A DNA stretch of 64,000 nucleotides, taken from positions 384,001 through 448,000 of the forward strand of contig CAVXTH010000009.1 of the NCBI GenBank assembly GCA_963764625.1, written 5' to 3'. Under the pieces are notes generated by a model. The model did not search any database. It was not told where the DNA came from and saw nothing but the letters and a program-made list of their open reading frames with translations. Numbering within the stretch: the stretch's first letter is position 1; the number at the start of each line of letters is the position of its first letter. Both the position numbers and the translations under genes were made by a program. The DNA is from Candidatus Krumholzibacteriota bacterium (GTDB lineage Bacteria > Krumholzibacteriota > Krumholzibacteriia > JAJRXK01). This document shows, piece after piece, positions 20,209 through 27,395 of this stretch.

Positions 20209-21939
20209 CTAGGCGCCGCGACCGATTCCCACCTGGTGCAAGAGGCCCCGGGGACCCTGGCGAAACAGCGAACCCAGCAGCAGCGCGACGAAGAGCACGA
20301 CTCCCGCTTTCTGCCACCAATGATAGCTGTACGCCTGGCTGCCCAGTTCGGGCACGCTTGCGGCGAGTCCTGGCACCAAGTTCGCCAGCCACCCCAGCAG
20401 GATGCTGCTCACCGGAACCGTGAGCATGAGGATCCACACCGCCTGCCTGCGGTGTACTCCCTTGATGGCGCCGTAGGTCGTGACGTTCGTGGCGGGACCG
20501 GTGAGCAGAAAGGCCAAAACGGCGCCCACCGAAGCCCCCTTGGCTAGGAAGATCGTGGCGATGGGCGTGGCGCCCGAAGCACATACGTAGAAAGGAGTCG
20601 CGATCAGGCCGAAGATGGGCACCTGGATCAGGTCGGGGATCAGGGCGATCAACCCGTTTCGCAGAATCGGTTCGATGAGGCCGGCCACCAGAATCCCGAC
20701 CAACACCCAGGGACCCAGATCGTCGAAGAGCTCGCGCGCGCCAAAATCGAGAGCTCCTTTGAGGTCGTTGCGGGGGGGCAAGGTGGCGGGATCTTCGGAT
20801 TCGGCAGCTTCGGAGGAGGGCATGAGTCTTCCCGCCACGAGCCCGGCGACCAAGGCCACGAGAAACGCCGCGATGAGCCGTACGATGGTGACGGGGGTGC
20901 CCAACAGGGGGATGGAAATGAGAATCGAGTCGAATCCCAATTCTGGAGTCGCCACCAGGAACGCGGTCGCGGCGGCCGCGGGAACTCCCCGCGCGTGCAG
21001 GCTACGGTAGAGTGGTACCACTCCGCACGAACAGATGGGCAGAGGAATTCCGAAGAGGATTCCCTTGAGCGCGCTCGAGGCCTCGGTGCTTCCCTTCAAC
21101 AGCTGTTTCAGTGAGCGCGCGGGAACCATGGTCATGAAACCCGCGCCGACAAAGCCCAGCACGACCGCGTACGAACTCTCCATGAAGAGATAGCCCATGT
21201 TGGAGAAGCCGCGCTGGAGCACCGGGGGAACCGTGTCGGGCAGGAGAAAGAAGATCAAGAGCGCCAGCACGGTGCCACTCGCTGCCCAAGCGGGGCTGAC
21301 CCGGGCTTCACCGTGTTCGGACTGATGACGATGATCCATGACCACGTGGAGGAGTCCACCGGCGAGCAAAGAGAAAATGATTCCCGAGACCGGTCCCACG
21401 CTCAGAGGGAGCAGGAAGCTGCTCAGAGCGTGCCCGACGAAAGTGGCGCCCGCGATGGCGGCCAGGATGGCCAGCGCGACCTTCGAGCCCAATTGCGGCC
21501 TGACCGACCACCAGATCAACAACCCCACCGGCACGCGATGGAGCAGAATCGCCAGAGGTAGGCTCCAGCCCTCGGTGAGATGCTGGTGCATGCCCTGTTG
21601 ATTGGCGGCCAGCGCCGCTCCGTCGAGCGAGGCATGCAGCACGAGTCCGATGACCGCCAGCCAGAGGATCGAGGAGGATTCGTCGGACTCGTGCCGGTGC
21701 AGCTTCCGCTCGGCGTAGAGCGGGAGAAATGCCCCGATCGCCGCGAAGAGAATGCACCAGGCGCCGATGCTGTCTCGCGCGTAGGGTAGAAGATGGAGAA
21801 GCGCCAAGCCCCCGACCATCACCAGGATGAAGCCGTCGAGCAGCGCATGGAGTTGGGAACGCCGCTGCAGGACACCCGCGATGAGAGGGCCGAAGGACAG
21901 GGCCACGGCCGAGAGAATCAGTGCACTGTGTGCGTCCAT
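20209..21939 (-). CDS. ZIP-like domain fused to DUF318/ArsP-type permease (putative metal transporter)
   Basis: N-half LHASLDGAAL and AILLHRVPVG (ZIP TM4/TM5-like); C-half GIPLPICSCGVVP, FLVATPELG, YVCASGATP, FLLTGPATN. Confidence 0.8.
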   Translation of the reverse strand: MDAHSALILSAVALSFGPLIAGVLQRRSQLHALLDGFILVMVGGLALLHLLPYARDSIGAWCILFAAIGAFLPLYAERKLHRHESDESSSILWLAVIGLVLHASLDGAALAANQQGMHQHLTEGWSLPLAILLHRVPVGLLIWWSVRPQLGSKVALAILAAIAGATFVGHALSSFLLPLSVGPVSGIIFSLLAGGLLHVVMDHRHQSEHGEARVSPAWAASGTVLALLIFFLLPDTVPPVLQRGFSNMGYLFMESSYAVVLGFVGAGFMTMVPARSLKQLLKGSTEASSALKGILFGIPLPICSCGVVPLYRSLHARGVPAAAATAFLVATPELGFDSILISIPLLGTPVTIVRLIAAFLVALVAGLVAGRLMPSSEAAESEDPATLPPRNDLKGALDFGARELFDDLGPWVLVGILVAGLIEPILRNGLIALIPDLIQVPIFGLIATPFYVCASGATPIATIFLAKGASVGAVLAFLLTGPATNVTTYGAIKGVHRRQAVWILMLTVPVSSILLGWLANLVPGLAASVPELGSQAYSYHWWQKAGVVLFVALLLGSLFRQGPRGLLHQVGIGRGA

Positions 21940-22168
21940 GGGTCCCTCGAGCGCCTCAGAGAATGAAACCGAATCGAGGGATCAAGACTAGGTTCAGCCG
22001 CGCGATTTCTCAAGTTCGCGCGTCCTCAGCCGCCCGGCGCGAGGGGCGGCGCCATGCCCGATGCGACCGTGAGACCCCGGTGGCCTGTCCGAATCCGGCG
22101 GCCAGTGCTAGATTCGAGAAGTTCGCCCGTTGGGGGCGATGCACCCGTTTCCTGGAGGTCCGCCGTCA

Positions 22169-23311
22169 ATGCGCTGCGTTTCTGCAATCGTTCTTCTACT
22201 CCTCGTGCCCCTTCTGAGCTCGGTGGCAGGCCTTAGCCTCGCGCAGGATGCCACGGATGAGGTGAAAGCTCCGAGCGCCAATTCGGTCGAGGAGGCCACG
22301 GCGCCAGATGGCATGTACGCGGTGTTTCATACGGATCTCGGGGTCATCGTCTGCAAACTCTTCTTCCAACGGGCCCCTCTGACCGTAGCGAATTTCGTGG
22401 GCCTCGCTGAAGGAACCCGAGAGACCATCGATCCCGTGACCAGGGAAACGGTGAAGAAGCCCTTTTACGACGGACTGCTCTTCCACCGGGTAGTGGGGGG
22501 TCTTTTGATCCAATGTGGCGATCCCACCGGGCATGGCACGGGGGGACCAGGCTACCGCTTTCGCGACGAATTCGATCCGGGCCTCCGTCACGATCGTCCC
22601 GGCGTACTCTCGATGGCCAACAGCGGGCCGAATACGAACGGCAGCCAGTTCTTCATCACCGAAACGAGGGTTCTGTCCTTCGACCGAAAGTACAGTGTCT
22701 TCGGGCGGGTCGTGCTGGGATTGGACGTCGTGTCCGCGATTTCTTCGGTTCCCACCGATCAAGAGCAACCCAAAGAGGATGTTCATCTGCGGACTCTCGA
22801 AATCGTGCGCCGGGGAAAGGAAGCGCAGAACTTCGATGCCGAGGCGGTCTTTGCGCACCTCAAGGATCTCGATGCGGCCCAACTTGCGCAGCTGCATTCC
22901 AAGCAATTTCACCAGAAAGTCGATCCGCTGCGCAAGAGGGCTCGCGAGCAGGAGGATGGCAGCCGGGTGGTCAAGACGCGTAAAGGAAGTGGGCTCCAAC
23001 CGCACGAAGGGGAGTCGATCGTCACGAACTACGTCTGCTACTTGCCCGATGGAAGTCAGGTGGAATCGACCTACCGGGATGAAACTCCGAAGGTCCTCGT
23101 CGCGGGCAGGCCGCGCAGGGGACTCGATTGGGAGCGGAACTTCCTGGACATGAAAGTGGGAGAAGAGCGCTGGGTGTTCTTGCCCGCGAAGCTCGCGTTC
23201 GGTAACCGTGGAATTCCGGGGGTCGTTCCCCCGGGCACTCCCCTCATTTTCCAACTCGAACTGGTCTCGATCGGAAGTGATGTCCCTCCGAGTGATCCGC
23301 AAGCCGAGTGA
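22169..23311 (+). CDS. Exported dual-family peptidyl-prolyl isomerase (cyclophilin + FKBP)
   Basis: Signal peptide; APLTVANFVGLAEG, FHRV, QCGDP.G.G.GGPGY, SMANSGPNTNGSQFFIT; C-terminal MKVGE...P.LAFG.RG.PGVVPP..PLIF. Confidence 0.88.
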   Translation: MRCVSAIVLLLLVPLLSSVAGLSLAQDATDEVKAPSANSVEEATAPDGMYAVFHTDLGVIVCKLFFQRAPLTVANFVGLAEGTRETIDPVTRETVKKPFYDGLLFHRVVGGLLIQCGDPTGHGTGGPGYRFRDEFDPGLRHDRPGVLSMANSGPNTNGSQFFITETRVLSFDRKYSVFGRVVLGLDVVSAISSVPTDQEQPKEDVHLRTLEIVRRGKEAQNFDAEAVFAHLKDLDAAQLAQLHSKQFHQKVDPLRKRAREQEDGSRVVKTRKGSGLQPHEGESIVTNYVCYLPDGSQVESTYRDETPKVLVAGRPRRGLDWERNFLDMKVGEERWVFLPAKLAFGNRGIPGVVPPGTPLIFQLELVSIGSDVPPSDPQAE

Positions 23312-23552: not shown

Positions 23553-23816
23553 GTGGCCAAGAAGAAGACTGCCGCCAAGAGGAAGCCCGCCGCGAAGAAA
23601 ACCACGAGAAAGAAGGCTGCGGCCAAGAAGTCCGCCATGGAGATGCTGCTCGTGGGAAGCAAGACCAAGGTTGCGCTCAAGAAGTACGGGGTCAACGTAG
23701 CTGGAGACGCCCTGGATGGTCTCAACGGTGTGCTCTACTGGTACGTCGAGCAGGCTGCCAAGCGCGCCAAGGCGAATGGCCGCAAGACGGTGCGTGCCCA
23801 CGATTTCACGGTGTGA
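23553..23816 (+). CDS. Bacterial histone-fold protein (Bd0055-like) with Lys/Ala-rich N-terminal tail
   Basis: AGGAGG 6 nt before GTG; 87 aa: MAKKKTAAKRKPAAKKTTRKKAAAKKSA-MEMLLVGSKTKVALKKYGVNVAGDALDGLNGVLYWYVEQAAKRAKANGRKTVRAHDFTV; histone L2 motif RKTVxxxD. Confidence 0.88.
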   Translation: MAKKKTAAKRKPAAKKTTRKKAAAKKSAMEMLLVGSKTKVALKKYGVNVAGDALDGLNGVLYWYVEQAAKRAKANGRKTVRAHDFTV

Positions 23817-23942: not shown

Positions 23943-24629
23943 TCACTTCAGGAGTCCCGCTTCGCTGAATTGCGGCAACCCTCCGTGCATTAAAAACCAG
24001 ATGAGGTAGAGCAAGAGCGCGAGCAGATACCCCGATGCGAAGAAGACGGACATCGCGTCCCGCTTGCGTCTTTTCCACTTCGCTCCAATCCATGTCACGA
24101 TCGATAGTGCGGCGAGAATTCCAAGCGCCGGCGTTTGCCCTTCCACCGTGACGGCGAAAAAGCTGAAACCGTAGGGCACTCCGCTCACGGCGCACGCGAA
24201 GGGTGAGACCCTCGCGTTCCCCACTGGTCCCCGCAGGAGGATGAGCGAGAGCGAGATGATCGCGCAGTGCCAGATGATGTGACTCAGATGTTCGTCCAGG
24301 AAGTAGTCGAGGCGCCACGCGGGAGTGGCCCCTTGGGGGTCGATGAGATGTCCCAGCGCGTTCGCGGCCAAATGAAGCGAGTGTCCTTCGATCCAGGCGG
24401 CCGAGAGAACCAGGAACAGAATCATCTTGGGCCAGCCCGGCCATCCGCCGTGACGGTGCCACAGGAGCAAAGCGTAGAGTGGCAAGAGTACGAGGGGGGT
24501 GAGGAGATCGAGGAGATCTCCCACGCGCAACAGACCCTCCGGCGGGGCGGAGTGCACCAAATACGCCGGGCTCAACAGGAAAAGAGTGAAGCTGATGGAG
24601 AACAGGATGAGACTGCTAGAGAGTTTCAC
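23943..24629 (-). CDS. Polytopic membrane protein with CLN6-like motifs
   Basis: About 7 hydrophobic segments; motifs VGD..LLTP, GHSLHLAANALGH, YFLDEHLSHIIW, TVEGQ. Confidence 0.65.
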   Translation of the reverse strand: MKLSSSLILFSISFTLFLLSPAYLVHSAPPEGLLRVGDLLDLLTPLVLLPLYALLLWHRHGGWPGWPKMILFLVLSAAWIEGHSLHLAANALGHLIDPQGATPAWRLDYFLDEHLSHIIWHCAIISLSLILLRGPVGNARVSPFACAVSGVPYGFSFFAVTVEGQTPALGILAALSIVTWIGAKWKRRKRDAMSVFFASGYLLALLLYLIWFLMHGGLPQFSEAGLLK

Positions 24630-24767
24630 GACCGCTTCCTCGGCTGTGGGCAGTCGAGCATGCCGTCACGTGGAGTTTCGCGCAAGCGCCGGCTCGTCTT
24701 GCTCACGGAGAGGGAAAGATTTACGCTTCGCGCCGAGCTCTTTTCGAAAGCCGAGGGATCATTCTTC

Positions 24768-27395
24768 ATGCGACTCTTCCACCTCCGATCGCTGGTGCTC
24801 ACTCTCATCGGTCTTCTTCTCGTCTTCATCGCGACGAGTCCGGCGCGGGCCGCCAAGCTCGACGGGCTTCCCGACTATGCCTCGGAGTCGAGCTGGCTTC
24901 TGAGTCCGCCGGGGATGGCCTCCAGTTTGGCGGCGGGGCTCTTCAATCCCGCGGCGTTCGGCGTCGCGCCCCAACCCGGTCTCTACTTCGGTTGGCGTAG
25001 CAACGACGAGCTGCCGGTGAGTCCGCTGCATCAGCCGCTTCTTTTGAAATCGAACGACCTGGCCGCAGTGGTCTCCTTACCGCTCCTGAGCTTCGCTTAC
25101 CGACGCTTCGACTTCGAGGGAGCGGCCTCGGGTTCCCCGCTGCTCCAGGGGATCAGCGCCGACCGTCCCACTGTGAACGAATATTCCCTCGCCTTCAGCG
25201 GAGGCGATCGCTCGCATGCTCTCGGCCTTTCCTACTCCTGGTCGGGCGGAGACCGCGAAGCGATGCCGCGTCACCGTCGCCTCAGCGCCGGAATGATCGA
25301 GCGGAGGAGATTTCTCTCGTGGGGGCTCAATGGGGATTGGGATGTGGAGAACGGAGACCTCGCCGGTCAGACCGATCTGGGGATTCGGCCTTTCGGAGCG
25401 TCTTGGACTCTCTTCGGTGAGCTCAGCGCGCGCCCCGATGATTCCGACCGCGTCGGCTGGAGGGGCGGTTTCGGTCTGGAGAGTCAATTCGTGCCCGGCC
25501 TGCGTGCCAGCGTACGCTACCGGGACGGCGGTACCTTCGGGCTGGGACTCGCGCTCGTCTTCGGAGGCGGAACGCGGGCCAGTTCGATCACGCAGCTCAA
25601 TTCGGATCGCGTCGTGCAAAGAGTCAGTTCGATCCAACTCGGATCGGTGGTCGATGCGCCACTCGATTTGCATCCCGGGAAGCGCAGCCGCGGCTCCACC
25701 GTCGAATTGTCTCTGAAGGGGCCGATGCCCTATCGCCACTATCGTTTCTTTGACGATCGTCAGACTCTTCTAGCCACCCTGTCGCGCATTTCCGCCTGGG
25801 CCGACGATCCGCAGGTGAAGCGTCTGGTTCTGAATCTCTCCGGAATGCGCATCAGCGGCGCGATGCTCTGGGAGCTGCGGCAACAATTGGACGGGTTCCG
25901 CGCGCGCGGGAAAACCGTCGTGGTCTACGCCGACCGCCTGACGCTCTTGGGAACGATGCTGGCGAGCGGCGCGGACGAGGTCTGGCTCGATCCTCAGGGA
26001 GATCTGGATCTGCGCGGACTCAGCTGGGGGAGGACCTACTATCGCAACGCGCTCAAGAAACTGGGTCTCGGCGTCGACGCCTGGCGCTACTTCTCTTACA
26101 AGTCGGCCTTCGAGGTGCTCTCCCGCAGCTCCCAGAGTGAGGCGGATTCCCTGCAACGGCAGGTACTCATCGACGACTACTACGAGGAGGCGCGGGCCGA
26201 GATCTGTTCGGCGCGCGGCCTGAGCCCCGAAGACTTCGACCACATCGTCGACACGCGCGGATATCTGCCCGCGCGCGAGGCCCTGACTCTGCACCTGGTC
26301 GACAAGGTGGGAAGCTACGAGGAGGCGCGGAAGGGCAAGAAGGAAGGGGACGACTCCAGCTTTGCCGCGAAGGGGCGAGAGAGCCACCTGGCCAAGGCGC
26401 CTTCGATCGACGGGCTCTTGGGCGATCCTCGCTTCAGGCGAGCCGAATGGGGTGAGCCGGCCAAGATCGCCGTTCTCTACGCCATCGGCGAGTGCGCGAT
26501 GGACACCGGAATCGAGGGACGTCGATTGAGCGCCGAGATCAAGCGGGCGCGCGAAAACCCCGAGATCAAGGCGGTGGTGCTGCGGGTCGACTCGCCGGGA
26601 GGAGATCCGCTTCCCAGCGACATGGTCGCCCGCGAGATGCTCGAGACGATGAAAGTGAAGCCGGTCGTCGTCAGCCAGGGCAACGTCGCCGCGTCGGGTG
26701 GGTACTGGATCAGCATGTACTGCGATTCACTTGTCGCCTCTCCCTTCACCCTCACCGGCAGCATCGGGGTCATCGGAGGCTGGATCTACGATCGCGGGTT
26801 CTCTCAAAAAATCGGCTTCGACTACAGCCAGGTGCAGCGAGGAGCCCACGCCGACATGGGGGGGGGCATCCGCCTTCCCTTCCTTCAGGTCACGGTGCCG
26901 CACCGTCCCCTGGACGAGGAAGAGCACCGACGCGTGGAGAAGATCATCCGCGGGATGTACGGCGACTTCGTGGCCCAGGTGGCCAAGGGAAGGGGGCTGA
27001 GCGAGGCGCACGTGGATTCGGTGGGGCAGGGGCGGGTGTGGAGTGGAACCCGCGGCAAGGAAAACGGGCTCGTCGACGAGATCGGTGGGTTGTGGCACGC
27101 GCTGCAGATCGCCAAGACCTTGGCTCACCTCCCCGATGGACGCGCGGTGGAGCTGGCGGAGGGACCGCAGCTCGGGACCTTCAACTGGGACGCTCTCAAG
27201 CCGAAGTTTCTGTCGTCTCCGGTGGAAGAGGGAATCGCGTTCGATCCGCTCTCCGGCGCTCCGCGGCAGCGCTTGGGCCCCTGGATGGGGCTGAGTGAGG
27301 AAGAGCTGCGATTCCTGTGCGCCGTGTTCCGCGAGCCGGGACGGCCGGTGTTGCGCGCCGATCCCATCGAGATCCACGACGGCGGGACTCCCTAG
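24768..27395 (+). CDS. sppA: Signal peptide peptidase SppA (S49, tandem domains) with N-terminal beta-barrel-like extension
   Basis: YKSA (Lys), LRVDSPGG, AASGGY (Ser), TLTGSIGV, GRVWSG, GLVDEIGG; cleavable signal peptide plus ~290-aa beta-rich N-domain containing FNPAA. Confidence 0.85.
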   Translation: MRLFHLRSLVLTLIGLLLVFIATSPARAAKLDGLPDYASESSWLLSPPGMASSLAAGLFNPAAFGVAPQPGLYFGWRSNDELPVSPLHQPLLLKSNDLAAVVSLPLLSFAYRRFDFEGAASGSPLLQGISADRPTVNEYSLAFSGGDRSHALGLSYSWSGGDREAMPRHRRLSAGMIERRRFLSWGLNGDWDVENGDLAGQTDLGIRPFGASWTLFGELSARPDDSDRVGWRGGFGLESQFVPGLRASVRYRDGGTFGLGLALVFGGGTRASSITQLNSDRVVQRVSSIQLGSVVDAPLDLHPGKRSRGSTVELSLKGPMPYRHYRFFDDRQTLLATLSRISAWADDPQVKRLVLNLSGMRISGAMLWELRQQLDGFRARGKTVVVYADRLTLLGTMLASGADEVWLDPQGDLDLRGLSWGRTYYRNALKKLGLGVDAWRYFSYKSAFEVLSRSSQSEADSLQRQVLIDDYYEEARAEICSARGLSPEDFDHIVDTRGYLPAREALTLHLVDKVGSYEEARKGKKEGDDSSFAAKGRESHLAKAPSIDGLLGDPRFRRAEWGEPAKIAVLYAIGECAMDTGIEGRRLSAEIKRARENPEIKAVVLRVDSPGGDPLPSDMVAREMLETMKVKPVVVSQGNVAASGGYWISMYCDSLVASPFTLTGSIGVIGGWIYDRGFSQKIGFDYSQVQRGAHADMGGGIRLPFLQVTVPHRPLDEEEHRRVEKIIRGMYGDFVAQVAKGRGLSEAHVDSVGQGRVWSGTRGKENGLVDEIGGLWHALQIAKTLAHLPDGRAVELAEGPQLGTFNWDALKPKFLSSPVEEGIAFDPLSGAPRQRLGPWMGLSEEELRFLCAVFREPGRPVLRADPIEIHDGGTP

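Follow-up and report, generated by a model that had tools for sequence, protein, structure and literature searches.

What would an enzyme that inverts the stereochemistry of a glycerophosphodiester do in bacteria that have no lysosome, no CLN8 and no CLN5? This question is raised by a gene in a 64,000-nucleotide stretch of DNA from a soil-type Candidatus Krumholzibacteriota bacterium (the window; positions 384,001 to 448,000 of contig CAVXTH010000009.1, assembly GCA_963764625.1). Its product, a protein of 228 amino acids (aa), had been proposed in a sequence-only reading as a bacterial homologue of the human Batten-disease protein CLN6. According to our analysis the homology is borne out, CLN6 being the only Pfam match of the window protein and the only family that recurs among its relatives. 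Judged by these profile matches, the window protein is a distant prokaryotic member of the CLN6 superfamily. We further posit, with a probability of roughly 0.65, that it is a homodimeric seven-helix enzyme of the inner membrane which uses phospho-histidine chemistry of the CLN6 type and inverts the sn-configuration of the glycerol in a glycerophosphodiester.

Among the Batten-disease proteins, CLN6 was one of the last to lack an assigned activity until two bioRxiv preprints appeared on 9 October 2026, and the statement in the sequence-only reading that its biochemical activity is unresolved is therefore outdated. There, CLN6 is described as a Ca2+-dependent epimerase of the endoplasmic reticulum (ER) which acts before CLN8 and CLN5 and turns R,S- into S,S-glycerophosphoglycerol, a chemically unusual step that belongs to the biosynthesis of S,S-bis(monoacylglycero)phosphate (S,S-BMP) (PMC13692256; 10.64898/2026.10.07.757350). 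The patient variant H127Y is inactive when purified, the variants D59A, D131A, D173A, E174A, H178A and E227A were inactive in an alanine scan (E227A in human cells), and knockout cells are not rescued by R62H, by D173/E174/H178 triple mutants or by Y182A/Y223A (PMC13692256; 10.64898/2026.10.07.757350). The mechanism is built on AlphaFold, Boltz and quantum mechanics/molecular mechanics models, which favour a site with two Ca2+ ions and an intramolecular 1,3-phosphoryl migration via phospho-His178, the proposed nucleophile. D59, R62, Y182 and Y223 hold the second glycerol of glycerophosphoglycerol in these models, and the protein is described as having a cytosolic N-terminus, a luminal C-terminus and a cavity open to the lumen, and is modelled as a homodimer (PMC13692256; 10.64898/2026.10.07.757350). 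The sequence-only reading had suggested that shared His, Asp and Glu residues may make up an intramembrane site, metal-binding or catalytic, perhaps of a lipid enzyme. This agrees with the preprints, according to which the enzyme needs Ca2+, its activity depends on D173/E174/H178 and E227, and the nucleophile is proposed to be H178. Neither preprint text contains the words "bacteria" or "prokaryot" (PMC13692256; 10.64898/2026.10.07.757350), and no account of prokaryotic CLN6 relatives was found in the literature searched, subscription journals being outside its coverage. Some bacterial family members already bear precomputed PF15156 labels, and databases therefore tag part of the family without comment.

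The kinship is carried by matches to the CLN6 family of Pfam (PF15156). In a Pfam scan, this was the sole match of the window protein, with an E-value of 4.6e-5 and 23.4 bits over residues 82-212, corresponding to positions 112-248 of the 280 in the profile, and no family matched better. At the level of sequence profiles, the CLN6 signal is clear for the family as a whole. PF15156 was matched by 21 of 46 diverse members of alignment A1 at E<=0.01 (best 1e-8), and two other Pfam families by one of the same 46 members each. Of ten relatives scanned singly, six reached the gathering cut-off of 27 bits (P0004 32.7, P0005 27.0, P0026 28.7, P0027 29.6, P0053 30.7 and P0107 35.3 bits) and the remaining four scored 24.3-25.8 bits; P0004 is 70% identical to the window protein. 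In the ESM Atlas, PF15156 was found on 12% of the 362 members of a neighbour cluster (score 0.94), the two nearest clusters were without a common family, and a search limited to named clusters yielded nothing further. An NCBIfam scan of the window protein gave no match, and searches of the PDB sequences with the protein and with the profile returned none at E<=10. When pieces of the window protein were scanned against Pfam, those of 60 and 81 aa matched CLN6 weakly and supplied the alignment coordinates used below, those of 25, 41, 44 and 80 aa gave no CLN6 match, and one of 36 aa gave a weak and unrelated match to NCC-H.

The core residues are conserved, as counted over 225 full-length family members. 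The human residues were read by eye from the construct printed in PMC13692256, the numbering of which agrees with R62, H127, D173, E174, H178, Y182 and Y223 of the preprints. All motifs quoted in the sequence-only reading are present in the order given, namely VGD..LLTPLVLL (36-49), GHSLHLAANALGH (82-94), YFLDEHLSHIIWH (109-121), VTVEGQ (160-165) and Trp211 in the last helix, and the human motifs quoted there (VGD..VITPFLLL, GASIHLVGDSVNH, YYYDEYLGHCMWY and LVTEGQ) are correct for the printed construct. In transmembrane helix (TM) 4, D112 is kept in 224, E113 in 223, H117 in 224 and W120 in 211 members, and in the turn between TM5 and TM6 the counts are 213 for G154, 220 for E163 and 211 for T166. 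The Trp of TM7, W211, is found in 214. The TM2 motif shows D38 in 191 members (Glu in 27 others), D41 in 199, T44 in 196 and P45 in 222, and that of TM3 G82 in 210, H86 in 213, L87 in 214 and N90 in 223 (Asp in one).

HMMER coordinates place D112, E113, H117, W120, G154, E163 and W211 opposite human D173, E174, H178, W181, G218, E227 and W276, respectively. Residues 105-178 of the window protein were aligned to profile positions 137-213, residues 82-129 to 112-161, and residues 101-218 of P0107 to 133-249, with the D-E-x3-H motif at 144-149. D112/E113, E163 and W211 thereby fall on profile positions 144/145, 198 and 247, and the offset relative to human D173/E174, E227 and W276 is 29 throughout. 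The residue mapping from TM4 to TM7 thus goes beyond motif matching. The distance from the D-E motif to the E-G-Q turn is 54 residues in human CLN6 and 51 in the window protein, in agreement with three extra profile positions between the two motifs.

The structure predicted for the protein is in line with this kinship. The AlphaFold2 (AF2) model on A1 (mean predicted local distance difference test score, pLDDT, 94.5; predicted template modelling score, pTM, 0.91) consists of seven long helices (3-23, 36-60, 66-93, 103-132, 143-163, 167-188 and 192-215), the number that had been estimated from the letters. Across the 225 members, Lys and Arg amount to 2.05, 2.49 and 2.98 per sequence in loops 2, 4 and 6. 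The corresponding values are lower for loops 1, 3 and 5 (0.96, 0.72 and 0.05) and for the C-terminal tail (0.58), and an orientation with the N-terminus inside and the C-terminus outside is therefore predicted. All invariant polar residues are predicted to be close to the extracytoplasmic ends of the helices, no more than a few turns away, on the side that corresponds to the ER lumen. The protein is also predicted to form a homodimer. A two-copy complex prediction scored 0.86 (best of three controls 0.00), with three runs agreeing in 100% of contacts and a partner pLDDT of at least 89; in the calibration, 20 of 30 proteins with structures solved as one-chain pairs attained the mark set for this score, as did 1 of 23 solved as single chains, figures that are approximate here as our own alignment was used. 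The predicted interface has TM3 at the centre of a symmetric arrangement, residues 80, 84, 88 and 92 each touching the same residue of the partner, and H86 and N90 would therefore be on the opposite face of the helix, toward the interior of the protomer.

By analogy with human CLN6, we infer the chemistry, metal dependence and substrate of the bacterial protein as follows. The protein would be situated in the inner membrane, the N-terminus being cytoplasmic and the C-terminus external, and its polar cavity would open to the extracytoplasmic space, the counterpart of the ER lumen. A divalent metal bound by Asp112/Glu113 and Glu163 (D173/E174 and E227 in human CLN6) would hold a glycerophosphodiester, the phosphorus of which would be attacked by His117 (H178). 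The released glycerol would then resolve the resulting covalent phospho-histidine with its other primary hydroxyl, and the phosphate would thus move from one end of the glycerol to the other, inverting its sn-configuration; this 1,3-phosphoryl shift would be seen as an epimerisation. Because the residues corresponding to D59, R62, Y182 and Y223 are not conserved, the bacterial protein may act on another glycerophosphodiester or on the head group of a lipid. As genes for BMP-pathway partners were likewise not found, both the substrate and the biological role probably differ from those of human CLN6.

A number of observations weigh against this reading, and some of them concern the kinship itself. 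The window protein scores below the gathering cut-off of PF15156 (23.4 versus 27 bits, and 21.8 bits in a six-frame search of its genome). HMMER support ends at residue 78-82 and covers only the end of TM3 to TM7, and N-terminal fragments (TM1-TM3) of ten members gave no CLN6 match (0/10). Eukaryotic CLN6 was not recovered when proteins of 514-2000 aa were searched with A1, which found nothing, nor when proteins of 273-2000 aa were searched with the C-terminal fragment profile A2, which found only four more proteins of prokaryote type. The kinship thus rests on Pfam profile matches and the collinearity of motifs. Other observations concern the pocket. TM1 (residues 3-23) has no conserved charged residue to stand for human D59 or R62; in an informal alignment by eye, the positions opposite them are position 17 (Phe in 154 and Leu in 40 of the 225 members) and the variable position 20. 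The counterpart of Y182, position 121, is His in 182 members and Tyr in 6, and that of Y223, position 159, is variable (Ala 50, Leu 40, Cys 36, Val 31). The pairing of H86 with H127 and of N90 with D131 was made by eye and requires a deletion of about 20 residues in the loop that follows. The HMMER coordinates do not use the H86-H127 pairing, and the same offset would put the TM3 motif near human G141..H145, about 18 residues later. We nevertheless favour the pairing by eye, because it keeps the helix-for-helix correspondence and because the loop after TM3 is already of variable length among the bacterial proteins, some of which have insertions of 8 residues; it implies that Asn takes the place of the essential human D131 in 223 of 225 members.

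The remaining points of this kind concern the setting of the gene and its reference. In its own genome (G000, 96.4% complete) there was no match to CLN8-type TLC (PF03798) and none to CLN5 (PF15014), the latter being a weak negative, as the CLN5 model matched no control genome. No neighbour gene was conserved across 80 loci, kept out of the 208 CLN6-like loci that tblastn confirmed in the species-genome collection: when the open reading frames (ORFs) within 4 kb were clustered, the largest real neighbour cluster comprised 8 of the 80 loci and the next two 6 each. Finally, the human enzymology to which the bacterial protein is compared rests on the two preprints (PMC13692256; 10.64898/2026.10.07.757350).

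The main rival retains the CLN6 fold and catalytic core and assigns them a different reaction, the protein being a phosphodiesterase or an intermolecular glycerophosphotransferase. The phospho-histidine would then be resolved by water or by another acceptor, such as a cell-envelope glycan, a lipid or a protein, so that glycerophosphate or another phospho-alcohol would be transferred or cleaved on the outer side of the membrane. This outcome of the same phospho-histidine chemistry is possible, if rather unlikely. It would explain why the nucleophile and metal ligands are kept and the residues around the non-reacting glycerol are not (no counterpart of D59 and R62, His for Y182, a variable Y223 position, Asn for D131), and the lack of BMP-pathway partner genes among the matches in its own genome points the same way. 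The family is also patchy, a distribution that would suit an accessory role in the envelope: of 40 related genomes, the gene is present in two of four of the same genus and in none of the 36 others (5 of the same family and 31 of the same class). However, no glycosyltransferase, teichoic-acid or envelope genes recur beside the CLN6-like gene in the 80 loci, and human CLN6, the one member that has been characterised, is an isomerase according to the preprints.

According to a second alternative, the protein is a membrane protein without enzymatic activity, for example a channel, transporter or sensor of divalent metal, and its conserved His, Asp, Glu and Asn residues only serve to bind a metal ion. 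We regard this as improbable: the residues are indeed typical metal ligands and the upstream neighbour is a permease with a weakly ZIP-like N-terminal part, but this neighbour is common only to the close Krumholzibacteriota relatives and not to the whole family, no transporter family was matched in the Pfam or fold searches, and the human homologue is, according to the preprints, an enzyme that requires exactly these residues. That the resemblance to CLN6 is a chance or convergent likeness of hydrophobic helical proteins, the family being an unrelated one of seven helices, is hardly credible; the sub-threshold score of the window protein, the lack of a profile match for the first three helices and the tendency of low-complexity TM helices to inflate scores would be explained, but not the fact that CLN6 is the sole recurrent match over the 46 diverse members, with six of ten relatives above the curated cut-off, nor that three separate polar motifs (D-E-x3-H-x2-W, E-G-Q and the TM7 Trp) follow the profile in the same order and at one offset, in keeping with the insertions and deletions counted by HMMER, nor that these motifs are the functionally essential human residues and that helix number and orientation agree with human CLN6, as reported in the preprints.

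The epimerase-like enzyme that we prefer is encoded by a real, conserved gene (Table 1). The protein is matched at E<=1e-3 by 171 proteins of a 90%-clustered collection, and the family by 330 representatives of 50% clusters at E<=1e-3 and by 161 at E<=1e-10. Its N-terminus is collinear with those of the homologues, which begin at its residues 1-3, and the GTG start is thereby supported.

Table 1. Features of the CLN6-like gene and its neighbourhood, in window coordinates
Feature	Position	Strand	Extent or location	Basis or human counterpart
CLN6-like coding sequence	23943..24629	-	228 aa; GTG start 24629, stop 23943-23945	ORF list, homologue alignment, Pfam, AF2
D38-L-L-D41-L-L-T44-P45 motif	24495..24518	-	outer start of TM2	match by eye to human VGD..TP, without HMMER support
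G82-H-S-L-H86-L87-A-A-N90-A-L-G-H94 motif	24348..24386	-	outer end of TM3	candidate match to human G123..H127..D131..H135
D112-E113-H-L-S-H117-I-I-W120-H121 motif	24267..24296	-	near outer start of TM4	human D173-E174-x3-H178-x2-W181-Y182 (putative Ca2+ site and phospho-His nucleophile)
G154...E163-G-Q-T166	24132..24170	-	TM5-TM6 turn	human G218...E227-G-Q229
Intergenic region	24630..24767		138 bp between the CLN6-like gene and divergent sppA; presumed promoters	
SppA-type protein	24768..27395	+	875 aa	two Peptidase_S49 stretches
Histone-fold ORF	23553..23816	+	Lys/Ala-rich N-terminal tail, then about 59 aa (core 23637-23816)	
Peptidyl-prolyl isomerase	22130..23311	+	393 aa, hydrophobic N-terminus	cyclophilin-type and FKBP-type domains, fused
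Membrane protein	20209..21939	-	576 aa	C-terminal part ArsP_1 'predicted permease' (E 5.6e-40)

The immediate surroundings are as the sequence-only reading had described them, with the gene divergent from sppA, which encodes a two-domain Peptidase_S49 protein, and convergent with a small histone-fold ORF. The divergent arrangement recurs in locus L005 of a Candidatus Krumholzibacteriota metagenome-assembled genome (MAG), with which the window is syntenic over about 10 kb, the longest same-strand segments sharing 67-90% amino-acid identity. A listed sppA ORF of 1042 aa, starting at 24267, overlaps the CLN6-like gene and is probably over-extended. The core of the histone-fold ORF resembles solved DUF1931/bacterial histone-fold proteins (9qt0, E 2.9e-10; 8cmp, 2.3e-4; 8fvx, 2.6e-4), while the ORF had no significant match in Pfam, and a 202-aa version that begins at 23208 is probably too long. 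The N-terminal part of the 576-aa permease has a weak match to ZIP zinc transporters (E 6.9e-4, under the cut-off), and the whole protein may be a fused metal transporter.

By the taxa given in the records, the 80 loci belong mostly to Chloroflexota (60), followed by Actinomycetota (6) and by Krumholzibacteriota, Eisenbacteria, Cyanobacteria and Verrucomicrobiota with two each; single loci are from Zixibacteria, Dormibacterota, Planctomycetes, Cytophagia, a bacterium without classification and a contig that binning assigned to the archaeon Nitrosotalea. The latter carries a 40% identical homologue (L026:6001-6702) on a 34-kb contig of a Nitrosotalea sp. MAG, which could reflect a real transfer or a binning error. 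The biggest ORF cluster around the loci (10 loci) consists of antisense ORFs over the CLN6-like gene itself. One relative of 348 aa, P0270, shows an apparent partial tandem duplication, in which a half-copy with DLLTP and HLAA and without D-E-x3-H is followed by a complete copy. The genome of the window protein has a GDPD gene on another contig, unlinked to the CLN6-like gene; this match (G000:C8:35666-36339) is split into two overlapping pieces in different frames, which could be due to an error of assembly or to a frameshift. No support was found for a link to archaeal-type sn-1 lipids, as PcrB/GGGPS had no match in this genome. Papers retrieved for BMP in alkaliphilic bacteria dealt with monoacylglycerol lipases instead, and this lead was abandoned.

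What appears to be new here, as judged from sequence and model, is the CLN6 fold and catalytic core in a bacterium, combined with a changed pocket, a more compact architecture and another cellular setting, in which the known pathway was not found. A relative of only 228 aa with a fold predicted at high confidence, in which the proposed nucleophile and the acidic residues are kept, could be a simple model of CLN6. The cultured strain Longilinea arvoryzae KOME-1 carries a homologue (L052:6001-6675; 35% identity over residues 8-227), and the small size of the protein together with a cultured host would make a practical system for structure determination, trapping of the phospho-histidine and the analysis of metal dependence. 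The natural replacements (D131 by Asn, Y182 by His, and no D59 or R62) represent a ready-made mutational experiment that may separate residues of the chemistry from those of substrate choice. As an unlikely extension, one may speculate that a phospho-histidine mutase of the CLN6 type, placed at the outer face of the cytoplasmic membrane in Chloroflexota above all and also in Krumholzibacteriota, Actinomycetota and other bacteria, inverts the sn-configuration of a glycerophosphodiester or of a phospholipid head group, and that the stereo-inversion step of eukaryotic BMP synthesis descends from this prokaryotic family. If this were true, there would be stereo-inverted, phospholipase-resistant lipids or polymers in bacterial envelopes for which nobody has looked.

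In comparison with human CLN6, as described in the preprints, the bacterial protein is alike in its seven helices, in its orientation with a cytoplasmic N-terminus and a luminal or outer C-terminus (predicted on the bacterial side) and in the homodimer predicted for each. The two share, in collinear order, D-E-x3-H-x2-W in TM4, E-G-Q where TM5 turns into TM6, a basic loop joining TM6 to TM7 and the TM7 Trp, and by eye also G-x3-H-L-x2-[D/N]-x3-H at the end of TM3. They differ in size (228 versus 311 aa), the bacterial protein having no long cytosolic N-terminal tail, a short C-terminal tail and, if the alignment by eye is right, a TM3-TM4 loop that is about 20 residues shorter. They also differ in the pocket, where D131 is an invariant Asn, Y182 a His and the Y223 position variable and where TM1 offers no equivalent of D59 and R62. 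Human CLN6 resides in the ER, whereas the bacterial protein is predicted in the inner membrane, facing the periplasm, and, unlike in the human pathway, no CLN8 or CLN5 partner genes were found in its genome (the CLN5 negative being weak).

Two further systems provide mechanistic comparisons. GDPD-type phosphodiesterases (PF03009) likewise perform divalent-metal- and histidine-dependent chemistry on glycerophosphodiesters such as glycerophosphoglycerol, but they are TIM-barrel hydrolases without a membrane helical bundle. The cofactor-dependent phosphoglycerate mutases of the histidine-phosphatase superfamily have a soluble alpha/beta fold, are metal-independent, act on phosphomonoesters and have no relation to CLN6 in sequence or fold. 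They share with the proposed mechanism an intramolecular migration of a phosphoryl group between glycerol-derived hydroxyls via a covalent phospho-histidine, and thus represent an analogy of mechanism only.

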